From positions 1 to 8,430 of IMG/VR virus record IMGVR_UViG_2778260991_000010: a DNA stretch of 8,430 nucleotides; one strand, 5' to 3'. The notes beneath the pieces were generated by a model, which ran no database searches, was not told the origin of the DNA, and worked only from the letters and a program-made list of their open reading frames with translations. Origin of the DNA: a virus. Its lineage: Duplodnaviria > Heunggongvirae > Uroviricota > Caudoviricetes. Position numbers and translations under genes: made by a program. This document shows positions 1 through 8,430 of the stretch, one piece after another; within the stretch, counting starts at the first letter, position 1; each line of letters starts with the position of its first letter.

Positions 1-915
1 AAATCCGTTTTCACGTTCCCACTGCTCACGTGCTGCCCGAATTTCCTGAACTGCCCGTGATGCGGTGCCACCTGGCGCTGCTGCATGTCTCACCCCCTTG
101 CTGACTGGTTTAACCTGCGCCCTGACGTGATTTACGTGACGGGCGAATTTCTGCTCCCACTGAACCTGGCTAAACACTTTGCCATCATCACTCCAGTAAT
201 CCCGGAATGCGGCAAGTTCAGCAGGTGTAAATTCTGGTTCCGGCAAAGCCATCCCCCACAACGCAGCCCGTCGTCGAAAATCCTGTGACGGATGCCAGTC
301 ATCGGTCATCGGAAATTTTCCAATGGGCTCGCTCAGGCCATCCAGGAATACAGGGGGCGCAGCCTGTAACGACAAAACTTCCTGCTCACTGGTCGGAGCA
401 CTCTCGCGTGCGTTATGTGTGGGGTTTAGATCTTTGGGTTCCTTTGGGTTCCGTGATCCGTTTTTGGGTGTCTTTGATGGAAAATTTGGGTGTCTTTGGT
501 TATTTTCCATGCAGCAAAGAGTTCCGTTTTTGGGGCTGTTTTGTGCTGAAACATAACCGTTTTCGGTACTGTTTTTATTAACAGTACCAATTTCACCCAC
601 CTTTAAAGACTCCCGTTTTTGGGTGTATTCAGGCTCGGCAACACTTTCTTCTACACCGATAAGTCGGTACACCACAATTTGCTTTGTTCTGCCTTTTCTC
701 TCACCGGTATCAACAATTAACCCAATCTCCATCAGGTGTCGTAAGCTGTCCTGCACAGTCTTTTTGTTCAGTTCCGTTACTTCTGCCAGTGCAGATACAG
801 ACGGGTATGCACACAAATCGGCACCGCACATATCAGCAAGCCAGGTCAATACTGACTTACTGGATGAACTGCCGGTTTTCACCTTTTTAGCCCATCGTAG
901 TGCATCGATACTCAT
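1..915 (-). CDS. Phage replication initiation protein, 5' part only (N-terminal winged-helix-like domain, iteron-encoded linker, DnaT-like C-terminal region); C-terminus lies beyond the window start
   Basis: Minus-strand frame is open for all 305 codons from the ATG at 913-915 to the window edge; with no stop in the window it is absent from the ORF track. Hand translation begins MSIDALRWAKKVKTGSSSSKSVLTWLADMCGADLCAYPSVSALAEV...GRTKQIVVYRLIG, then a low-complexity linker, then ...FRDYWSDDGKVFSQVQWEQKFARHVNHVRAQ. Start codon is uncertain because the frame stays open upstream of 915. Plus-strand ORFs listed here (85..288, 285..581, 623..1087) look like antisense shadows. Confidence 0.6.
   Translation of the reverse strand, partial: MSIDALRWAKKVKTGSSSSKSVLTWLADMCGADLCAYPSVSALAEVTELNKKTVQDSLRHLMEIGLIVDTGERKGRTKQIVVYRLIGVEESVAEPEYTQKRESLKVGEIGTVNKNSTENGYVSAQNSPKNGTLCCMENNQRHPNFPSKTPKNGSRNPKEPKDLNPTHNARESAPTSEQEVLSLQAAPPVFLDGLSEPIGKFPMTDDWHPSQDFRRRAALWGMALPEPEFTPAELAAFRDYWSDDGKVFSQVQWEQKFARHVNHVRAQVKPVSKGVRHAAAPGGTASRAVQEIRAAREQWERENGF
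431..630. repeat. Iteron array plus AT-rich inverted repeat; putative replication origin inside the replication gene
   Basis: Tandem TTTGGGTTCC at 433-442 and 443-452. CCGTTTTTGGGTGT at 458-471 and 613-626, with variants at 524-537 (CCGTTTTTGGGGCT) and 557-570 (CCGTTTTCGGTACT), and TTTGGGTGTCTTTG at 463-476 and 485-498. Perfect 9-bp inverted repeat GGTACTGTT (565-573) / AACAGTACC (580-588) around the spacer TTTATT. Same layout as the lambda origin inside gene O. Confidence 0.55.
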
Positions 916-1438
916 ACGAACCCCTGGCAGACATTTGTTTATCTGCAAAGTAATATTGGTATTGCTGACGATACGCGTGCTTGAAAGCAATAGCTTTTTC
1001 TATAAGCTCGTCAGTCTCACGTTCCACAACAGCTGGATCCGCAAAAAGCAGCCCGGACTCCACCACATCGCCATATTCTTTGTTTAACCCGGCGATCATG
1101 TACGTAATGCTTTTTCCGTCAGTAATTTCACAATACAACCTGAAATCGCTGATCCGGATAGCCTCCATAATTGCCGGAATCAGCGCCGTGAATTTTTCCC
1201 GCTTATCCCTGGTGTCGATAGCTTTCCAGCGTTCGAATATCTTCACCCGGTTAACGCCCAGCACCCGTTGATCAACCGCTCCATCATCAAACGTGACGCG
1301 TTGAACATCGATGTTCGGGCGTTCTTTCAGTGCCCAGAATGCTTCCGTGATTAATATCGTCGCCTGCTCCTGTGTCATTCCTGGTCGGCATACCCAGGTA
1401 TCCAGAGCCTCACAAACCTGTTCAGGGGTGATTTTCAT
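887..1438 (-). CDS. YdaT-like prophage protein (183 aa), downstream of the cro-like gene
   Basis: ORF-track entry with ATG at 1436-1438. Its start overlaps the last codons of the upstream cro-like gene by 17 nt, and its stop (887-889) overlaps the replication gene start. The segment KIFERWKAIDTRDKREKFTALIPAIMEAI resembles what I recall of Rac YdaT, and the position matches the ydaS-ydaT-replication layout. Family assignment is from memory, not a search. Confidence 0.5.
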   Translation of the reverse strand: MKITPEQVCEALDTWVCRPGMTQEQATILITEAFWALKERPNIDVQRVTFDDGAVDQRVLGVNRVKIFERWKAIDTRDKREKFTALIPAIMEAIRISDFRLYCEITDGKSITYMIAGLNKEYGDVVESGLLFADPAVVERETDELIEKAIAFKHAYRQQYQYYFADKQMSARGSYEYRCTTMG

Positions 1439-1649
1439 TGTTCAACCGCCCCGCCCGCTTTGCCTTACGATATTCGTCATAAACTTTGGGGTCGTACTGA
1501 AGTTCCCCGCCGGATGCCTCTTGCAGGCGCATCGCGCGACCTTCAGGAACCAGTTCCCCCCATTGAGAAACAGCAGATGGATCAACACCAGCAGCTTTCG
1601 CTACTTTGGCTTTCGTCCCATAAAAATTAATTGCGTCTGATTTAAACAT
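1422..1649 (-). CDS. dicC: Cro-like helix-turn-helix regulator, DicC/YdaS family
   Basis: The ORF-track entry 1422..1661 begins at a TTG. The likely true start is the ATG at 1647-1649 (MFKSDAINFYGTKAKVAKAAGV...), directly preceded on the minus strand by GGAGGGGG. About 75 aa, divergent from the repressor gene; the C-terminal half matches my recollection of DicC. Confidence 0.75.
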   Translation of the reverse strand: MFKSDAINFYGTKAKVAKAAGVDPSAVSQWGELVPEGRAMRLQEASGGELQYDPKVYDEYRKAKRAGRLNNENHP

Positions 1650-1663
1650 CACCCCCTCCAAAG

Positions 1664-1677
1664 TTGAGTTTTCTCAA
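1664..1677. promoter_or_regulatory. Operator-like palindrome TTGAGTTTTCTCAA in the divergent dicC/dicA control region
   Basis: TGAG-N4-CTCA inverted repeat between the start codons of the divergent regulators (1649 and 1728). The same 13-mer recurs at 2197-2209. Confidence 0.45.
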
Positions 1678-1727
1678 TAGTAATCACTCAAGGAATCTCA
1701 AGTCAAGGGTTATTAAGATATCTAAAT

Positions 1728-2135
1728 ATGAACGATAAAACTTTAGGTCAACGAATTAGAGAAAGACGCAAACAGGTTGGTTTAAGTCAAAACGATTTAA
1801 GCAAAGCCGCTGGCGTATCTGGCTCATCAATTTCACTATGGGAAAGCGACCATACAGCCCCGCGCGGGCAAAATTTGCATCGCCTGGCTGAGGTATTGCA
1901 ATGTTCACCAACTTGGATACTGTTTGGTGACGAGGATAAAACACCAGATCCACCAGTTGCACTCAACAGCGCCTTAGACTTATCGGAAGATGAGTTGGAG
2001 ATGTTGCGATTGTATCGCGCACTTCCAAAATCAGAGCAGCAAGCACAAATCAGCGAACTCCGTGCCCGCGTTGAGAATTTTAATCGCCTATTCACCGAGC
2101 TACTAGAAGCTCGCAAACGTAACAAACATCAGTAA
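1728..2135 (+). CDS. dicA: XRE-family helix-turn-helix immunity repressor, DicA-like
   Basis: 135-aa ORF. N-terminal HTH (QRIRERRKQVGLSQNDLSKAAGVSGSSISLWE) and the motif LQCSPTWILFGDEDK followed by a C-terminal helix, matching what I recall of E. coli DicA (also 135 aa). Divergent from the cro-like gene. Confidence 0.85.
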   Translation: MNDKTLGQRIRERRKQVGLSQNDLSKAAGVSGSSISLWESDHTAPRGQNLHRLAEVLQCSPTWILFGDEDKTPDPPVALNSALDLSEDELEMLRLYRALPKSEQQAQISELRARVENFNRLFTELLEARKRNKHQ

Positions 2136-2196
2136 CCCCCTTCACAAATTTTAAAGCCTTACATTTCAATGTATTGGCTTTATTTTGCATTAAATA

Positions 2197-2248
2197 TTGA
2201 GTTTTCTCATTAAAAACACTTGACCAGCTTTCATGAGAAAACTAAATT
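2197..2248 (+). promoter_or_regulatory. Putative dicB-operon promoter (TTGACC-N17-TAAATT) flanked and overlapped by two operator copies
   Basis: -35 TTGACC at 2220-2225, 17-bp spacer, -10 TAAATT at 2243-2248. Operator copy TTGAGTTTTCTCA at 2197-2209, and an inverted degenerate copy TGAGAAAACTA at 2234-2244 overlapping the spacer and -10. Consistent with repressor control of the dicB operon. Confidence 0.45.
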
Positions 2249-2324
2249 ACCACCCATCAAGACACCGCACGGTGTTCTCAGCAAACAGTTCCGCTACCCG
2301 GCGTTAAGGGGAAATGAGGTCAAC

Positions 2325-2480
2325 ATGGATACTATCGATCTTGGTAACAACGAATCTCTGGTATACGGCGTGTTTCCCAACCAGGACGGCACGTTCACCG
2401 CGATGACGTATACCAAAAGCAAAACGTTTAAAACCGAATCTGGCGCGCGTCGCTGGCTGGAAAGAAACTCAGGTGAGTGA
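2325..2480 (+). CDS. ydfA: YdfA-like small protein (51 aa)
   Basis: Internal ATG at 2325 preceded by GAGGT (2316-2320). Product MDTIDLGNNESLVYGVFPNQDGTFTAMTYTKSKTFKTESGARRWLERNSGE. First gene after the repressor, as in the Qin dicB operon. The longer ORF-track entry from 2220 starts at a TTG inside the promoter region. Confidence 0.6.
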   Translation: MDTIDLGNNESLVYGVFPNQDGTFTAMTYTKSKTFKTESGARRWLERNSGE

Positions 2481-2481
2481 T

Positions 2482-2610
2482 ATGGATTTCGACACAATCA
2501 TGGAAAAGGCTTACTAAGAATACTTCGAAGGCCTTGCCGAAGGCGAAGAAGCTCTCAGCTTCAGCGAATTTAAACAGGCGCTTTCCAGTTCGGCAAAATC
2601 TAACGACTGA
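2482..2610 (+). pseudogene. ydfB: ydfB-like ORF (42 codons) interrupted by an in-frame TAA at codon 12 (2515-2517)
   Basis: ATG at 2482, two nt after the ydfA stop. Reads MDFDTIMEKAY, then TAA, then the same frame continues EYFEGLAEGEEALSFSEFKQALSSSAKSND to TGA at 2608-2610. Total length and spacing to neighbours fit the 42-codon ydfB position. Confidence 0.45.
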
Positions 2611-2639
2611 TAAGCGAAACAGCACCGCGAGGAATCAGT

Positions 2640-2858
2640 ATGCAGAAACGAGAACCCGTCATCATCGCGCCAGACTATACCGATGATGAACTTTATGAGT
2701 GGATGCGCCAGAAAATTAATGCAGCGCAGGATCTGAAATGGGTCAATGAAGCCAGGGCTAAGCAGGCTGAAAATCTGTCCGCTCTGGAGCAGGATATCAC
2801 CAATCTGGAAAAAGCAGCGGCATTAAGCATTGCCAGAATGATTACATACCCGCGTTAA
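2640..2858 (+). CDS. ydfC: YdfC-like small protein (72 aa)
   Basis: 72-aa ORF with AGGA 7 nt upstream of the ATG. Size and position (third ORF of the operon, 30 nt after ydfB) match ydfC. Confidence 0.6.
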   Translation: MQKREPVIIAPDYTDDELYEWMRQKINAAQDLKWVNEARAKQAENLSALEQDITNLEKAAALSIARMITYPR

Positions 2859-2880
2859 TAGCTAACCAACTAGGCTAATA

Positions 2881-3288
2881 ATGGAATTTAAAGATTTACC
2901 AAAAGAAATCCAGACAATTGCTGCAACGACTCTCGGTGATAGTCTGGTGAAAATTGACCCGGCATACACCAAAAAAGAAACCATCGATAATATGGTTCGT
3001 AATGTGCGCAATGCTTTTTCTGGGCTATATAGTTCTGATAATCAAAAGCAGGAAAGCGATGTTAATGAACGGGTAATTTCTGTTTGCGTGAATGGCCACG
3101 CTCTTTCATCAATCAAAACAGAAACAGCGACAGTCTTCGATTGCCTTTGCATTGTACAGAGCCTTGTTGATACCCTGTTTCGTTCAGTGAATTTAGAAAA
3201 TGATGCAAATCTGCGAGGGCGCACAATAGCACATCCATATGCACATACTTTAGGCTCTGTGGATATCAAAGATCCCACAAATCTTTAA
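2881..3288 (+). CDS. Hypothetical protein (135 aa) in the AT-rich insert, co-oriented with the dicB operon
   Basis: ATG-to-TAA ORF of 135 codons in DNA of about 38-40% GC, where stop codons are frequent and long ORFs are unlikely by chance. Protein-like composition. Only a weak ribosome-binding site (AGG). Starts 22 nt after the ydfC stop. No family recognised. Confidence 0.5.
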   Translation: MEFKDLPKEIQTIAATTLGDSLVKIDPAYTKKETIDNMVRNVRNAFSGLYSSDNQKQESDVNERVISVCVNGHALSSIKTETATVFDCLCIVQSLVDTLFRSVNLENDANLRGRTIAHPYAHTLGSVDIKDPTNL

Positions 3289-3499
3289 TGAAATAGTTAA
3301 TGCGAATTGTACTTGCTCTTTCAGTTTCTTTCAGAATACGCGTTGAAACTGCTGGCGGTAATTTGGTATTCCATTTATTAAAATCATGCCCGGGAAAGTA
3401 CTCTTCGAAAATACTTTTAACTGCAGACTCGCCTATTGAAATGCTGCTTACCATGCGATTTTGATAAAGGCATTTAGCAATAAGAGTTGATTTTAACAT
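3266..3499 (-). CDS. Hypothetical protein (77 aa) in the AT-rich insert, antisense to the dicB operon
   Basis: ATG at 3497-3499 (minus) preceded by AGGAGG with a 4-nt spacer (reverse complement of 3501-3510). 77 codons, stop at 3266-3268. The 3' end overlaps the 3' end of the 135-aa ORF by 23 bp. No family recognised. Confidence 0.5.
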   Translation of the reverse strand: MLKSTLIAKCLYQNRMVSSISIGESAVKSIFEEYFPGHDFNKWNTKLPPAVSTRILKETERASTIRINYFIKDLWDL

Positions 3500-3503
3500 T
3501 CAC

Positions 3504-3829
3504 CCTCCTGAGGGTTGGTAATTAAGGAGTTATCCACGGGTGAGGTGGAGTGCGTGCGCCGGACACGGGTGAACATCCGGCACTGACAGTTTACTGAAAG
3601 GATATATCCCTGAAAAGTCAGGGCATAACACGAAAGTGCACGGCGAAGTCCTTCTCCCTTAGAGCCGTCGTTAAATTTAATTCGACCGTGCGCTTCCGGT
3701 TGTGGCAATCCGCGAAATGGCGCGGCGGTAAGTATGGCGGGGTTATTCTTTCCCCGTTGAGGACACCGGGTTGTCAGGTTGACCATACGCTTAAGTGACA
3801 ACCCCGCTGCAACGCCCTCTGTTATCAAT
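3504..3829 (+). other. GC-rich, hairpin-dense untranslated spacer upstream of DicF
   Basis: About 55-58% GC with no credible ORF. Stem-loops: GCCGGA/TCCGGC (3558-3581), CCCTGA-AAAG-TCAGGG (3608-3623), CCGCG/CGCGG (around 3700-3716), CGGGG/CCCCG (around 3738-3756), and a 9-bp stem GGGTTGTCA/TGACAACCC (3768-3776 / 3796-3804). Direct repeat CACGGGTGA at 3536-3544 and 3564-3572. Confidence 0.4.
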
Positions 3830-3882
3830 ATTCTGGTGACATTTGGCGGTATCAGTTTTACTCCGTGACTGCTCTGCCGCCC
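3830..3882 (+). ncRNA. dicF: DicF small regulatory RNA (about 53 nt)
   Basis: Sequence AUUCUGGUGACAUUUGGCGGUAUCAGUUUUACUCCGUGACUGCUCUGCCGCCC closely matches the DicF sequence as I recall it (two possible differences near the 5' end). It sits 186 nt upstream of the dicB start and ends in a stem plus T-run. Confidence 0.7.
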
Positions 3883-3888
3883 TTTTTT
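3845..3888 (+). terminator. Intrinsic terminator forming the DicF 3' end
   Basis: GGCGG (3845-3849) pairs with CCGCC (3877-3881), followed by TTTTTT at 3883-3888. Confidence 0.5.
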
Positions 3889-4067
3889 AAAAGTGAATTT
3901 TGTGATGCGGTGAATGCGGCTCAGCGCACGCGGAACAGTTAAATCGGTAAAGCGGTCATTTGCTGAGTAACGGGAATGCTCTGTATCCGGCGTTAATTGT
4001 TAACTGGTTAACGTCACCTGGAGGCACCAGGCACTGCATCACAAAATTCATTGTTGAGGACGCGATA

Positions 4068-4256
4068 ATGGAAAAGTTATCATACAATGCCAGTACGTCT
4101 GAACTTCGTTTCGAAATTGGCGTTATCACTGGAGACAAAACATTTATTGAAGACGCCATTAAGCAGAGAAAACTCGAGCAGGACCTGTTAAATGAAGTAT
4201 GCATTCCTTCAATGCTGGCTCGTCTGGACCTGCTGCAAAAAGGATATAAACAATGA
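4068..4256 (+). CDS. dicB: DicB-like cell-division inhibitor (62 aa)
   Basis: ATG at 4068 preceded by GAGGA. The 62-aa product contains FEIGV, EDAI and SMLARL motifs as in DicB as I recall it. Stop overlaps the ydfD start (ATGA). Confidence 0.75.
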   Translation: MEKLSYNASTSELRFEIGVITGDKTFIEDAIKQRKLEQDLLNEVCIPSMLARLDLLQKGYKQ

Positions 4257-4444
4257 AAACAACATTTGCACTCGTTCTGACAGTTTATCTTGTTTCCGGC
4301 GAATCTCTTGAGATGGTGACTGGCTTATACGGTTCAATGAAAGAATGCATGGCTGCAGCAGCAGAACAAAAAATTCCCGGTAACTGTTATCCGGTAGATA
4401 AAGCTACTCACACTAATAATAACGAAATACCGGCGGGACTTTAA
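4253..4444 (+). CDS. ydfD: YdfD-like small protein (63 aa) with hydrophobic N-terminal segment
   Basis: 63-aa ORF translationally coupled to dicB. N-terminus TTFALVLTVYLV is hydrophobic. Size and position match ydfD. Confidence 0.6.
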   Translation: MKTTFALVLTVYLVSGESLEMVTGLYGSMKECMAAAAEQKIPGNCYPVDKATHTNNNEIPAGL

Positions 4445-4537
4445 AACAGCACCGAAATAAACATCCGGTTTCATTTTTATATGCCAGCAATGGCAGGGAT
4501 TTGTTCACCCTTAAATCTGTAATGAGGTTAAAACAAA

Positions 4538-7009
4538 ATGAATAAAGTCTTTATTTGTGCAGCTATTCCAGACGAACGGGCAATAAAGGAAGAAGGTGCA
4601 GTCGCTGTGGCCACTGCCATTGAAGCCGGTGACGAGCGCCGCGCCCGAGCCAAATTTACCTGGCAATTCCTGGAGCAATATCCGGCTGCTCAGGACTGCG
4701 CTTATAAATTTCTTGTCTGTGAGGATAAACCCGGCATGCCCCGCCCTGCCATTGACTCCTGGGATACCGAATATATGCAGGAAAACCGCTGGGATGAGGA
4801 ATGCGCTTCCTTTGCTCCGGTCGAACCAGAATCCGATCCGATGAACGTCAATTTTGACAAGCTGTCCCCTGAAGTACAGAACGCGGTCCTGGTTAAGTTC
4901 GGTACATGTGAAAACATCACCGTTGATATGGTGATTAGCGCGCAGGAATTGTTGCAGGAAGACATAGCAACATTCGACGGACATATCGTTGAAGCGTTGA
5001 TGAAAATGCCAGAAGTTAACGCCATGTATCCGGAGCTTAAGCTGCATACCATCGGGTGGGTTAAGCATAAATGTAAGCCTGGTGCCAAATGGCCCGAAAT
5101 TCAGGCAGAGATGCGCATCTGGAAAAAACGTCGCGAAGGTGAACGCAAGGAAACCGGGAAATACACGTCTGTTGTTGATCTCGCCCGCGCCAGAGCCAAT
5201 CAACAGAACACTGAAAATTCAACAGGAAAAATCAACCCGGTCATTGCTGCCACTCATCGCGAATACAAGCAGACATGGAAAACACTGGATGACGAACTGG
5301 CCTACGCTCTCTGGCCTGGTGACATTGATGCCGGAAACATTGACGGCAGCATCCATCGCTGGGCAAAAAATGAAGTTATCGACAACGACCGCGAAGACTG
5401 GAAGCGTATCTCGGCATCAATGCGCAAACAGCCTGATGCCCTTCGCTACGACTGCCAGACTATTTTTGGCCTTGTCCGTGAACGTCCGATCGACATTCAC
5501 AAAGACCCTGTAGCACTGAACAAATACATTACTGAATACCTGACTACAAAGGGCGTGTTTGAAGATGAAGGAAGAAATCAGAGCGCAACTGATACTCTCT
5601 CGTCGCCAGTACCAGAAACTGATGCAGTGGAAACGGCAATTCCGGACAACGAAAAAACCGAATGCAAAGTGGAAGTCGAACCATCTGTAGAGCGTGAGGG
5701 GCCGTTCTACTTCCTCTTCACCGACAAGGATGGCGAAAAATACGGTCGCGCAAACAAACTTTCTGGTCTGAATAAGGCGCTGACTGCAGGGGCTACTGAA
5801 ATCACGAAAGAAGAATATTTTGCCCGCAAAAACGGTACATACTCAGGTTCACAACAAAATACTGGTGCATCTGACACGACCGCACAACCAGAGCCGGTAA
5901 AAGTTACCGCTGACGAAGTAAACAAAATTATGCAGGCAGCCAATATCAGCCAGCCTGACGCCGATAAGTTGCTTGCTGCCTCTCGCGGAGAATTTGTTGC
6001 AGGGATTAGCGACCCGAATGATCCGAAATGGGTGAAGGGGATTGAAACCCGCGACTCTGTAAACCAGAACCAGCAAGAATCGGAACAGAACGACCAGAAA
6101 ACGGAACAAAACAGCCCAAATGCGTTACAAAACGAGCCAGAAACGAAACAGGTTGAACCAGTAGCGCAACAGGAGCCGGAAAAAGCCTGCACCGCCTGCG
6201 GTCAGACCGGCGGCAGTAGCTGCCCTGATTGTGGTGCGGTGATGGGTGACGCAACATACCAGGAAATATTCGATGAAGAGCATCAGCCTGAAGTTCAGGA
6301 AAATGATCCGGAGGAAATGGAAGGCACTGCGCATCAGCACAAGGAGAACACTGGCGGCAATCAGCATCATGCCAGCGATAGTGAAACTGGCGAGGCATCA
6401 GATCCCTTAATTAAGGCGAACGGTCATCATAATCTCACATCCACCAGCAGAGCGGAGATTCATCTGATGATCGACCTTGAAACCATGGGAAAAAATCCCG
6501 ATGCCCCGATTATCTCAATAGGCGCAATATTTTTCGATCCACAAACCGGAGATATGGGACCGGAATTTAGCAAGACCATCGATCTGGATACTGCTGGCGG
6601 AGTCATTGATCGTGACGTCATTAAATGGTGGCTTAAGCAATCACGCGAAGCGCAATCTGCCATTATGACCGATGAAATCCCGTTAGATGATGCACTGTTA
6701 CAATTGCGGGAATTTATCGACGAAAACTCCGGTGAATTTTTTGTTCAGGTCTGGGGAAATGGAGCCAACTTCGACAACACGATTTTGCGCCGTTCATACG
6801 AACGGCAGGGGATCCCCTGCCCGTGGCGTTACTACAACGATCGCGATGTACGCACAATCGTTGAGCTGGGGAAAGCCATAGACTTCGATGCCAGAACGGC
6901 TATTCCATTCGAAGGTGAGCGCCATAATGCACTTGATGACGCCCGTTACCAGGCAAAATACGTTTCAGCAATCTGGCAAAAACTGATCCCGAATCAGGCT
7001 GATTTTTAA
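4538..7009 (+). CDS. Large prophage exonuclease (823 aa): N-terminal exodeoxyribonuclease VIII-like region, acidic Q/E/N-rich linker with a CxxC-x7-CxxC zinc ribbon, C-terminal DEDDh 3'-5' exonuclease domain
   Basis: ATG at 4538 preceded by GAGGT. C-terminal motifs IDLETMG, WGNGANFDNTIL and HNALDDARYQAKY are typical of DnaQ-like DEDDh exonucleases. Zinc ribbon CTACGQTGGSSCPDC is encoded at 6188-6232. Sits where recE/ydfE-like genes lie in Rac/Qin-type prophages. Internal minus-strand ORFs (4511..5203 and others) are antisense shadows. Confidence 0.7.
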   Translation: MNKVFICAAIPDERAIKEEGAVAVATAIEAGDERRARAKFTWQFLEQYPAAQDCAYKFLVCEDKPGMPRPAIDSWDTEYMQENRWDEECASFAPVEPESDPMNVNFDKLSPEVQNAVLVKFGTCENITVDMVISAQELLQEDIATFDGHIVEALMKMPEVNAMYPELKLHTIGWVKHKCKPGAKWPEIQAEMRIWKKRREGERKETGKYTSVVDLARARANQQNTENSTGKINPVIAATHREYKQTWKTLDDELAYALWPGDIDAGNIDGSIHRWAKNEVIDNDREDWKRISASMRKQPDALRYDCQTIFGLVRERPIDIHKDPVALNKYITEYLTTKGVFEDEGRNQSATDTLSSPVPETDAVETAIPDNEKTECKVEVEPSVEREGPFYFLFTDKDGEKYGRANKLSGLNKALTAGATEITKEEYFARKNGTYSGSQQNTGASDTTAQPEPVKVTADEVNKIMQAANISQPDADKLLAASRGEFVAGISDPNDPKWVKGIETRDSVNQNQQESEQNDQKTEQNSPNALQNEPETKQVEPVAQQEPEKACTACGQTGGSSCPDCGAVMGDATYQEIFDEEHQPEVQENDPEEMEGTAHQHKENTGGNQHHASDSETGEASDPLIKANGHHNLTSTSRAEIHLMIDLETMGKNPDAPIISIGAIFFDPQTGDMGPEFSKTIDLDTAGGVIDRDVIKWWLKQSREAQSAIMTDEIPLDDALLQLREFIDENSGEFFVQVWGNGANFDNTILRRSYERQGIPCPWRYYNDRDVRTIVELGKAIDFDARTAIPFEGERHNALDDARYQAKYVSAIWQKLIPNQADF

Positions 7010-7020
7010 TGTTCAACCCC

Positions 7021-7053
7021 GGTCGTCGCCCACCAGCTATAGTGGCGGCGACC
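7021..7053 (+). other. Stem-loop (10-bp stem including one G-U) between the exonuclease gene and xis
   Basis: GGTCGTCGCC (7021-7030) pairs with GGCGGCGACC (7044-7053) across a 13-nt loop. No downstream T-run, so not a canonical intrinsic terminator. Confidence 0.35.
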
Positions 7054-7073
7054 ATGATTAGCGAACGACGCTC

Positions 7074-7322
7074 ATGGCAAGACTTATTCTGCTCACTGAG
7101 TGGGCAAAAGAGGAATTCAGCGATCCGGTCCCTACTCCGGGCACGTTAAGTAAATACGCTAAAGCCGGAATGATATTTCCTCTCCCCAAAAAAGTTGGAA
7201 GACACTGGCGAGTGGATCCGCGAGCTCGCTTTGTCGGAATGGTAAACAAGCCGGAGGTGATCGCCACAGATCACCCTGCTTTGAAGAGGATACTGGAAGA
7301 TGGCGCGCCCGCGAAAATATAA
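7074..7322 (+). CDS. xis: Excisionase (lambda Xis-like)
   Basis: 82-aa ORF immediately upstream of int, overlapping it by 23 nt, as with lambda xis-int. Small basic DNA-binding-like protein (EWAKEEF...FPLPKKVGRHWRV). Weak ribosome-binding site, so the start is uncertain. Confidence 0.65.
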   Translation: MARLILLTEWAKEEFSDPVPTPGTLSKYAKAGMIFPLPKKVGRHWRVDPRARFVGMVNKPEVIATDHPALKRILEDGAPAKI

Positions 7323-8430
7323 AACCAATGTTCCGGGATTATCTCCGTATTTTGACAAAAGAAATAACAAAGTTTACTGGCGTTACAGGCATCCCATAAC
7401 AGGCAAAAATCACGGTCTCGGCAGTATTGACCAGAAACTGGCAGAAACTATTGCAGCAGAAGCGAACAGCCGTCTTGCCAGGCAGCAAATGGAACAAATG
7501 CTCAGTCTGCAGGAGAAAATTATTAATGATACCGGCGGTTCATCAACCGTTTCCATTTTTCTGAATAATTACAGAAAAATTCAACAGGAAAGATATGAAA
7601 ACGGAGAAATCAAACTCAACACGCTGAAACAGAAAGCGGCCCCTCTCAGGGTTTTTGATGAACGTTTTGGCACCAGACCGTTAGATGCCATAACCGTAAA
7701 GGATGTGGTATCGGTGCTGGAAGAGTACAAGTCCAGAGGACATAACAGAATGGGACAAATTTTCAGGAAGGTACTGATCGATGTTTTCCGGGAAGCTCAG
7801 CAAACGGGCGATGTCCCGCCAGGCTTTAACCCTGCAGAATCGGCAAAAAAACCACAGGTGCGGATATCAAGACAGCGACTAACTTTTGATGAGTGGACGA
7901 TGATTTATAACGCAGCGGAAAAGGATGGTTACTTTTTACAGCGCGGTATGCTGCTGGCACTGATGACAGGCCAGCGCCTTTCAGATATTTGCAAAATGCA
8001 ATTTTCGGATATCCGGGATGGTTATCTTCATGTCGAACAGCAAAAAACAGGAACCCGGATTGCCATCCCTCTGGCTCTGCGTTGCGATAAATTAAATCTC
8101 ACCCTGGATGATGTGGTGTCATCCTGTCGCGATTGCGTTCTTAGTCCGTGGCTATTGCACCATCATCACGCGAAAGGGACAGCTAAGCGCGGCGGGATGG
8201 TTAAGCCAGCAACGTTAACCGTTGCATTTAAAAAAGCGCGGGATTCTGTGGATTACAACTGGCGTGCTAATGGCACCCCACCCTCTTTCCATGAGCAGAG
8301 ATCTTTATCAGAGCGATTGTTCAGAGAGCAGGGAATTGATACCCAAATTTTGCTGGGTCATTCGAATCAAAAAATGACCGATATTTACAACGATGCACGC
8401 GGCAAGGAGTGGAAAAAACTGGTCATTTGA
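7300..8430 (+). CDS. int: Tyrosine-type site-specific integrase, lambda Int family
   Basis: 376-aa ORF with GAGGA upstream. Clear similarity to lambda Int from memory: YVEQQKTGTRIAIP, PPSFHEQRSLSERL, and the C-terminal LLGHSNQKMTDIYNDARGKEW carrying the catalytic His and Tyr. Stop codon is at the window end. Confidence 0.9.
   Translation: MARPRKYKTNVPGLSPYFDKRNNKVYWRYRHPITGKNHGLGSIDQKLAETIAAEANSRLARQQMEQMLSLQEKIINDTGGSSTVSIFLNNYRKIQQERYENGEIKLNTLKQKAAPLRVFDERFGTRPLDAITVKDVVSVLEEYKSRGHNRMGQIFRKVLIDVFREAQQTGDVPPGFNPAESAKKPQVRISRQRLTFDEWTMIYNAAEKDGYFLQRGMLLALMTGQRLSDICKMQFSDIRDGYLHVEQQKTGTRIAIPLALRCDKLNLTLDDVVSSCRDCVLSPWLLHHHHAKGTAKRGGMVKPATLTVAFKKARDSVDYNWRANGTPPSFHEQRSLSERLFREQGIDTQILLGHSNQKMTDIYNDARGKEWKKLVI

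Follow-up and report, generated by a model that had tools for sequence, protein, structure and literature searches.

DicF is among the oldest known bacterial small RNAs (sRNAs). Escherichia coli K-12 yields a 190-nt and a 53-nt DicF species, as reported by Faubladier in 1990 and confirmed by Ragunathan in 2023 (PMC10448788). The 5' end of the 190-nt species is dependent on RNase III, and the 5' end of the 53-nt species is dependent on RNase E (PMC10448788). The 190-nt species accumulates on inactivation of RNase E and in stationary phase, and no evidence for an internal promoter of the operon was found in the K-12 study (PMC10448788). A 1,146-nt transcript ending at the DicF terminator is prominent in K-12, and read-through species are observed only with RNase E inactivated (PMC10448788). 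Here, we analysed the spacer upstream of DicF (positions 3504-3829) in an 8,430-nt stretch of a Caudoviricetes virus (IMG/VR record IMGVR_UViG_2778260991_000010, positions 1 to 8,430), which is referred to as the window. The processing of DicF from this leader is already established for K-12, and its sites are placed in the window by homology. The new content is a conserved modular pseudoknotted domain inside the known processing leader. According to the comparison of homologues, the 3' half of the spacer is predicted to form a conserved multi-helix RNA domain with a pseudoknot, and covariation establishes this fold; the domain is designated module B (3699-3813).

The window is identified by its sequence as a Qin-like prophage. 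A 635-nt query (3266-3900) shows a 100% match to a lambdoid prophage of E. coli O8:H28 BMH-17-0027, and the same portion, DicF included, is matched in about 80% of complete E. coli genomes. In the pairwise alignment, 3513-3829 corresponds to the ydfC-dicF intergenic region of K-12 with about 93% identity, and the alignment is nearly invariant over 3513-3900 except for a variable patch at 3644-3680. In K-12 Qin, the interval from ydfC to dicF is a single untranslated stretch of 340 nt. A preliminary description of this DNA, made from the letters alone, had placed DicF downstream of the spacer, and Rfam family RF00039 indeed matches 3831-3882 on the + strand (77 bits against a gathering score of 48, E = 3.8e-16). 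The RF00039 model consists of the 52-nt mature sRNA only and covers none of the spacer.

No known RNA family matches the spacer. A cmscan search of 3200-4100 against Rfam 15 at E <= 10 gave DicF, a sub-threshold downstream STnc100 match and one chance hit, with no match in the spacer. A tRNA-like fold or a C4-type RNase P substrate was rejected, as ARAGORN detected nothing in the window and no tRNA or C4 match of Rfam falls in the spacer. HnrS (PMC13502914) is unrelated. A published description of the module B fold, or of its occurrence outside Qin-type prophages, was not found in the searchable literature.

The module B model was built from a MAFFT alignment of 34 distinct sequences (A3) using RNAalifold and inspection, and the module B covariance model (R1) gives 149 bits on the window. 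The helices and the loop-to-junction pseudoknot are listed in Table 1. In A3, 93.6% of the cells are paired and 13 pairs are changed on both sides, whereas shuffles gave 5.2 +/- 1.5 double changes (none of 500 reached 13) and slid controls gave 0-5. The model-fitted alignment A4 of 76 distinct sequences, which is biased towards the model for that reason, shows 96.1% of cells paired and again 13 pairs changed on both sides, against 4.8 +/- 1.4 in shuffles (0/500 reached 13) and 0-5 in slid controls. Covariation in aligned homologues had been named in the preliminary description as a check on the spacer, and it was found for module B. In Izhakiella, four consecutive P4 pairs are changed from UUGU/ACAA to UAAC/GUUA. 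A P4 pair is changed from U-A to C-G in phages P1 and P7, and the same replacement is found in a pseudoknot pair of phage P1 and in a P2a pair of phage P7. Helix P3 is rebuilt in at least six lineages with both sequence and length different. The support for the pseudoknot is thinner, and consists of one compensatory event and wobble changes. GGCGCGGCGGUAAGUAUGGC and CAGGUUGACCAU.CGC are invariant from the Qin-type prophages to phage P1. When the 190-nt RNA is folded alone, helices P1, P2, P2a, P3 and P4 are recovered. The stretch 3500-3895 folds with a z-score of -2.2 as the + strand and of -1.8 as the minus strand; the folding energy of the spacer is only modestly low, and the strong evidence is the covariation.

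Several other pairings were considered. A long-range helix 3737-3744/3800-3807 competes with P3 and P4, has 77.5% of cells paired and one compensatory pair, and was rejected. A partner at the dicB ribosome-binding site was considered for the P3 loop (YCCUY) and for GUUGAGGAC, and was also rejected, as neither pairing is kept from lineage to lineage. GTTGAGGAC is present both at 3756-3764 in a module B junction and at 4053-4061 in the dicB ribosome-binding site; this sharing is probably due to chance, and the junction copy is not conserved elsewhere. In the copy of a P7-like viral contig (L020), P3 is enlarged by an insert of about 25 nt that includes eleven consecutive G, which indicates that P3 tolerates large insertions.

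Table 1. Coordinates of the features described in the text (window positions unless a locus is named)
Feature	Position	Strand	Remark
Helix P1 of module B	3699-3705/3807-3813	+	7-bp closing stem
Helix P2	3710-3714/3721-3725	+	CCGCG/CGCGG, 3710-3725
Helix P2a	3726-3729/3765-3768	+	
Helix P3	3738-3742/3752-3756	+	hypervariable; pyrimidine-rich YCCUY loop
Helix P4	3769-3776/3796-3803	+	
Helix P4b	3777-3779/3789-3791	+	
Pseudoknot	3732-3737/3783-3788	+	GUAUGG with CCAUAC in the P4 loop; loop-to-junction
Long imperfect hairpin	3624-3704	+	probable RNase III substrate
RNase III 5' end of 190-nt DicF	3692-3696	+	approximate; in 3' arm of long hairpin
A/U-rich linker GCCCUCUGUUAUCAAUA	3814-3830	+	predicted RNase E cut at 3830/3831, giving 53-nt DicF
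DicF sRNA and intrinsic terminator	3831-3888	+	stem GGCGG.../...CCGCC, then six U
Stem ACCCTC/GAGGGT	3502-3515		
5-bp hairpin TCCAC/GTGGA	3533-3549	+	loop GGGTGAG; 9-mer copy 1 spans arm and loop
6-bp hairpin GCCGGA/TCCGGC	3558-3581	+	12-nt loop with second 9-mer copy
6-bp hairpin CCCTGA-AAAG-TCAGGG	3608-3623	+	
Weak promoter-like site	3588-3616	-	TTTTCA, 17 nt, TAAACT; 8 of 12; sole candidate for the 77-aa gene
Shine-Dalgarno AGGAGG of antisense 77-aa gene	3504-3509	-	read from sequence
Antisense 77-aa gene	3266-3499	-	phrog_10348; ATG 3499-3497
135-aa gene	2881-3288	+	phrog_1363
ydfC (after ydfA and then ydfB, a pseudogene)	2640-2858		
dicA-like gene	1728-2135		
dicC-like gene	1422-1661	-	
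dicB	4068-4256		followed by ydfD-like gene, full-length exonuclease, xis, int
Short-form loci	L151 2190-2204; L156 2789-2803; L157 2733-2747		clean indel bounded by helix P1
C4 and IsrK-like RNAs of phage cdtI	L004 40-127 and 152-228	-	

The spacer is untranslated, and the domain is formed on the + strand. As had been stated in the preliminary description, there is no credible open reading frame (ORF): RefSeq has no coding sequence here, and a 111-aa minus-strand ORF spanning the region is non-coding according to homologue indels, which are found in all classes modulo 3. A 36-aa plus-strand ORF and this 111-aa ORF were rejected as genes, as the reading frame is not conserved. Several phage records annotate minus-strand 'hypothetical proteins' over module B. 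The P3 segment is 24-30 nt long across homologues, with all classes modulo 3 represented between nucleotide-invariant blocks, and thus the region is not coding. Many module B pairs are G-U and fit the + strand only, which indicates that the fold exists on this strand only. These pairs bear on the reading that the main role of the region lies on the minus strand, where it would provide the promoter and the 5' leader for the antisense 77-aa gene, because the conserved G-U pairs would become A-C mismatches on that strand. The Shine-Dalgarno sequence of the 77-aa gene abuts the spacer, the minus-strand genes of other prophages start at the same boundary, and one weak promoter-like site runs from 3616 to 3588. 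However, K-12 and many relatives have the spacer without the 77-aa gene. The search of the minus strand for a -35/-10 pair that had been proposed gave this one site, matching 8 of 12 positions, and a stricter promoter scan of the strand found none. We consider this reading highly improbable, and the weaker earlier suggestion that the spacer may additionally hold a promoter or leader for that gene is weakly supported by the abutting Shine-Dalgarno sequence and the single site.

The spacer is GC-rich, as had been noted, with a G+C content of about 0.52 compared with 0.37-0.45 in the flanks, and G exceeds C on its + strand. An excess of G over C in untranslated RNA disfavours Rho loading. Thus, the composition of the + strand would disfavour Rho loading on the untranslated leader.

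The preliminary description had proposed the spacer as the processing substrate for DicF and had stressed its short perfect stems. The first part is in agreement with the K-12 homologue, in which the processing has been shown. The second part does not hold, as the perfect stems are poor candidates for the RNase III target: the 9-bp stem (arms 3768-3776 and 3796-3804, which are perfectly complementary as described), the CCGCG/CGCGG stem and the GGGG/CCCC stem (3739-3755, falling in P3) are helices of module B and stay on DicF after the RNase III cut. The target is probably a long imperfect hairpin that was absent from the earlier list of stems (3624-3704). Its basal duplex of about 22 bp pairs CAUAAC.CG.AAAGUGCACGGCGA with UCG.ACCGUGCGCUU.CGGUUGUG, contains one bulge and one 1x1 loop, and thereby offers the roughly two helical turns (about 20 bp) of duplex with few interruptions expected of an RNase III substrate; the apex is hypervariable. 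The minimum free energy is -31.5 kcal/mol (z = -3.0, 0/200 shuffles), and this hairpin is the most significant single element of the spacer. The changes of its arms in relatives are mostly C/U opposite G. The RNase III end was placed at about 3694 by measuring 190 nt upstream of the terminator and by reference to the sequence of Fig. S1 (PMC10448788), which extends from the apex of the long hairpin through to DicF. The cut would thus be located 5 nt before 3699. The RNase E cut is placed at the 3830/3831 junction because the DicF model begins at 3831 and the end of the 53-nt species is RNase E-dependent (PMC10448788). The length and sequence of the linker carrying this junction differ between lineages.

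The long hairpin and module B share nucleotides. The final 6 nt of the hairpin, GUUGUG (3699-3704), double as the 5' strand of helix P1. In the fold of 3500-3895, which represents the uncut leader, GUUGUG is in the long hairpin, whereas in the fold of the 190-nt RNA it is in helix P1. Phage cdtI and a Rac-like phage have analogous hairpins of different sequence, in which GUUGUG is also sequestered (z = -3.55 and -3.83). According to this overlap between the uncut and cut folds, and the same overlap in cdtI, we propose that RNase III cleavage lets the domain close.

The spacer is probably the untranslated leader of the DicF precursor in the dicB-operon transcript, in which module B sets the stability and maturation of the 190-nt form. 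Its three working parts would be the long hairpin, module B and the linker. Before the RNase III cut, GUUGUG would be held in the base of the long hairpin. RNase III would then cut the hairpin and produce the 5' end of 190-nt DicF at about 3694, and helix P1 would close through pairing of the freed GUUGUG with CUGCAAC (3807-3813). The new 5' end would be tucked against the stable fold of module B, which makes up the 5' two-thirds of the 190-nt species. The product would be a long-lived reservoir whose sole exposed stretch is the single-stranded A/U-rich linker with the RNase E site, and RNase E would cut this linker and release 53-nt DicF. Module B would set the stability and the maturation rate of DicF-type sRNAs, perhaps with Hfq. 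The two processing events are taken from the literature and the conserved fold is from this work, and from these we infer the refolding step and the stabilising role. The refolding proposal is consistent with the stability of the 190-nt species and its rise in an rne-ts strain (PMC10448788).

Four points weigh against this reading. The loops and junctions are more conserved than a mere stabiliser or spacer needs, and their invariance suggests recognition by a specific partner. Natural short forms without the interior of module B retain the hairpin, the linker and the DicF-like sRNA, which indicates that module B is not required for such sRNAs. Phages P1 and P7 have module B without the upstream RNase III hairpin, and thus the refolding step cannot be general. 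Finally, the folding z-score of module B alone is -1.5, which is unremarkable.

According to BLAST searches against phage genomes, the spacer is a mosaic and its portions occur separately. The segment 3512-3704 is found without the remainder in phiSTEC1589-Stx1c and PhiR5_2, and the segment 3699-3821 is found without the remainder in cdtI, Ayreon, 2H10, Stx2c phages, Salmonella F1055 and an Actinobacillus phage. The core 3710-3806 is present in phages P1 and P7, where module B begins about 20-35 nt past the start of the C1-controlled ban promoter, is followed by a strong terminator and precedes the tRNAs and ban. In the early-left leaders of the cdtI-type phages (cdtI, Ayreon and Stx2c phages), which have no N gene, module B lies about 290 nt past PL. 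A pattern scan with one genome per species gave matches in Enterobacterales only (Escherichia, Shigella, Citrobacter, Trabulsiella, Erwinia, Izhakiella and Serratia symbiotica), and module B by itself has matches in 511 plasmid records, the majority of which are P1-like phage-plasmids. Downstream of module B, every lineage examined has an 11-33-nt linker and then a terminator-like stem with a U tract. This stem is of the DicF type (GGCGG/CCGCC) in most lineages and is an unrelated hairpin in P1 and P7. A terminator was called by the scan in 14 of the 20 representatives. The remaining six stems were read by eye: the loop is long in five of them, and the stem of Shigella L138 looks decayed.

The long loops have a content of their own. 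In Erwinia, Izhakiella, Trabulsiella, Serratia symbiotica and Salmonella F1055 (L147, L149, L145, L136 and L006, respectively), the loop within the terminator stem is about 50 nt long and contains AGGAG and the ATG of a small ORF (MFYRGTAFFTQQTRASPGDGLITQ... in Erwinia). A peptide stretch resembling this ORF is also present in an ORF of the cdtI/Stx2c type. In phage cdtI (L004), a C4 antisense RNA (68 bits) and an IsrK-like RNA (60 bits) are found on the other side of the immunity region. The dicF-dicB leader of the window (3896-4045, + strand) gives the sub-threshold STnc100 match, at 31.6 bits where the gathering score is 47. A match of this type is also located upstream of tciA in phage P1 (L003 3842-3961), and further ones are at L007 1766-1950 and L151 2250-2457. 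Thus, the leader of the P1 ban operon appears to share both module B and a second leader with the Qin-type dicBF operon.

In the natural short forms, the module B interior is replaced by 5 nt, giving GUUGUG-AAUAA-CAAC or GUUGUG-GAUAA-CAAC. The 75/02 Stx phage has only a 3' remnant of module B. This phage, phiSTEC1589-Stx1c and PhiR5_2 encode N and have lost or truncated module B. No N-like gene was detected within 4 kb of any of the 101 module B copies having at least 2.5 kb of upstream sequence, in a search whose queries included unverified lambda, P22 and phi21 N sequences, among copies that are phylogenetically redundant. The anti-correlation between N and module B is suggestive but imperfect, because a Rac-like phage with no detectable N also has a short form, together with a strong terminator.

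This distribution raises the reading that module B is a cis-acting processive antiterminator like HK022 put, which would bind the transcribing RNA polymerase so that it passes the DicF-type and later terminators into dicB or kil, the recombination genes and xis/int. Module B is always in the early operon upstream of the first strong intrinsic terminator; its positions near the ban promoter start and past PL, the absence of N-like genes near its copies and its loss from the N-bearing phages are consistent with such a function. The strong conservation of loops and junctions would also fit binding to an invariant host machine. However, the covariance model R1 gives no match at HK022 putL, at putR or at the annotated putL-like RNA of HK639, and membership in the put family, which the positions in P1 and cdtI had suggested, was rejected on this basis. 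A closed multi-helix junction with a pseudoknot also differs from put, which has two tandem stem-loops with conserved bulges and whose terminator read-through depends on the RNA and on the beta-prime zinc-binding domain. In K-12, where the domain is intact, the terminated 1,146-nt transcript is prominent (PMC10448788). The redundancy of the 101 copies and the Rac-like phage, with its short form and strong terminator, further weaken the argument from N. We consider an antiterminator rather improbable.

The conserved junctions also bear on a second reading, in which module B is an aptamer-like sensor of a small molecule or protein, and its state decides the outcome at the terminator or at the RNase E site, i.e. 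the choice between sRNA output and expression of the downstream genes. Its build is typical of aptamers, with P1 in an alternative pairing, invariant junctions and loops, a pseudoknot and a freely varying peripheral P3, and a terminator is always next. Against this, no match to a known riboswitch or leader family was obtained at E <= 10, and no conserved antiterminator pairing with the terminator, i.e. no conserved expression platform, was found. The linker (about 11-33 nt) and the terminator sequence differ by lineage, the terminator of phage P1 is unrelated, and there is no candidate for a ligand or partner. A sensor is thus judged unlikely.

A third reading takes module B itself as the product, freed by RNase E as a trans-acting RNA of about 137 nt (3694-3830), e.g. 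a protein sponge or decoy, with DicF as a mere neighbour. Module B is more conserved than the sRNA that follows it, phages P1 and P7 keep it with an unrelated 3' hairpin, and it is widespread in P1-like phage-plasmids (the 511 plasmid records). However, no report of a species of about 137 nt was found, module B is always linked to a downstream terminator hairpin, and no target was identified. We regard this as very unlikely.

A broader proposal joins parts of these readings. Module B may represent a new class of phage regulatory RNA, aptamer-like or polymerase-binding, positioned just before the first terminator of the early operon. It would decide between stopping there, with production of a DicF-type sRNA, and reading on into the genes for cell-division inhibition, recombination and excision, in a way common to the N-less Qin-like, cdtI-like and P1-like phages. 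We put this forward as a tentative possibility, and the role of module B as a determinant of the stability and maturation of 190-nt DicF remains the reading that we favour.

The preliminary description had also called attention to the abundance of short perfect hairpins and to a repeated 9-mer in the leader. The hairpins are present, including CCCTGA-AAAG-TCAGGG, but their count is not above chance according to dinucleotide shuffles: perfect hairpins of 6 bp or more number three, compared with 1.1 +/- 1.05 in the shuffles, 10% of which reach this count. The 9-mer CACGGGTGA does occur twice (3535-3543 and 3564-3572), with one copy in a hairpin loop. The two start positions are 29 nt apart rather than the stated 28 bp, and 20 nt separate the copies. 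Of the dinucleotide shuffles, 13% contain an exact 9-mer repeat, and this one is not conserved across lineages; it was rejected as a functional motif. The hairpin with the first copy has 6 bp in K-12 (CTCCAC/GTGGAG), and many relatives have other sequence in this portion of the leader. In the hairpin with the second copy, the GCCGGA/TCCGGC stem is invariant, and the loop varies between CACGGGTGA(A/G)CA and CACGGATAAGAA, the latter in many relatives. The CCCTGA/TCAGGG stem is changed on both sides to CTCTGA/TCAGAG in one relative, and K-12 retains only 4 bp of it.

The genes next to the leader differ from those of K-12. The 135-aa and 77-aa genes, which are convergent with an overlap of 23 nt, form an insertion between ydfC and the DicF leader, as judged by alignment with K-12. 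Pfam gives no match for either gene, and PHROGs gives only families of unknown function. The AGGAGG of the 77-aa gene is assigned to the inserted gene cassette rather than to the DicF leader, because the homology with K-12 begins at about 3513 and K-12 is without the 77-aa gene. In other prophages, different cassettes are found at the same point, each with the start of a minus-strand gene abutting the DicF leader, and the site looks like an insertion hot spot. Downstream of dicB, the exonuclease is full length (4538-7009, 823 aa), and is followed by 7074-7322 and 7300-8430 (xis and int). K-12 Qin has only the ydfE pseudogene, interrupted by IS2, and this arm of the present prophage is much more intact than that of Qin.

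The 190-nt DicF, known from gels since 1990, has been regarded as no more than an intermediate, and about 115 nt of it is the conserved pseudoknotted domain. Module B travels as a module between unrelated phages, and the natural variants without it offer a ready-made deletion design. The domain bears on how N-less lambdoid phages and phage P1 pass the strong terminator that heads their early operons. It also marks a gap in Rfam, and the annotation 'dicF-like' in phage P1 is misleading.

Long imperfect hairpins in early-left transcripts, at which an RNase III cut alters the fate of the downstream RNA, are known from the N-leader and sib of lambda. The hairpin 3624-3704 resembles them in this respect. 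The cuts in lambda affect N translation or int stability, whereas here an sRNA precursor would be released, and there is no sequence relation. The put RNAs of HK022 and HK639 are, like module B, structured RNAs of 70-126 nt in the early operons of N-less lambdoid phages upstream of terminators. They differ from it in topology and have no detectable similarity in sequence or structure, and the terminator after module B is functional in vivo in K-12 (PMC10448788). The stretch of phage P1 labelled 'dicF-like region' in GenBank (AF234172 68791-68892; L003 2553-2654) is a true homologue of module B with 76-81% identity over 3710-3806, and compensatory changes in P4, P2a and the pseudoknot are found in the P1/P7 copies. 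This region overlaps the 3' half of module B and the following terminator, and is not like the 53-nt sRNA; the 3' hairpin of P1 is unrelated to DicF, and the P1 copy is near the 5' end of the primary transcript. The closest system is the dicBF precursor of K-12 Qin, which is the same locus in a related prophage and has the same RNase III hairpin, domain and RNase E junction. In K-12, ydfC is directly before the leader, whereas two extra genes lie between them in the window. In the K-12 literature, the 137 nt upstream of DicF are treated as an unstructured precursor extension, whereas the comparison presented here indicates that they carry a conserved pseudoknotted fold.

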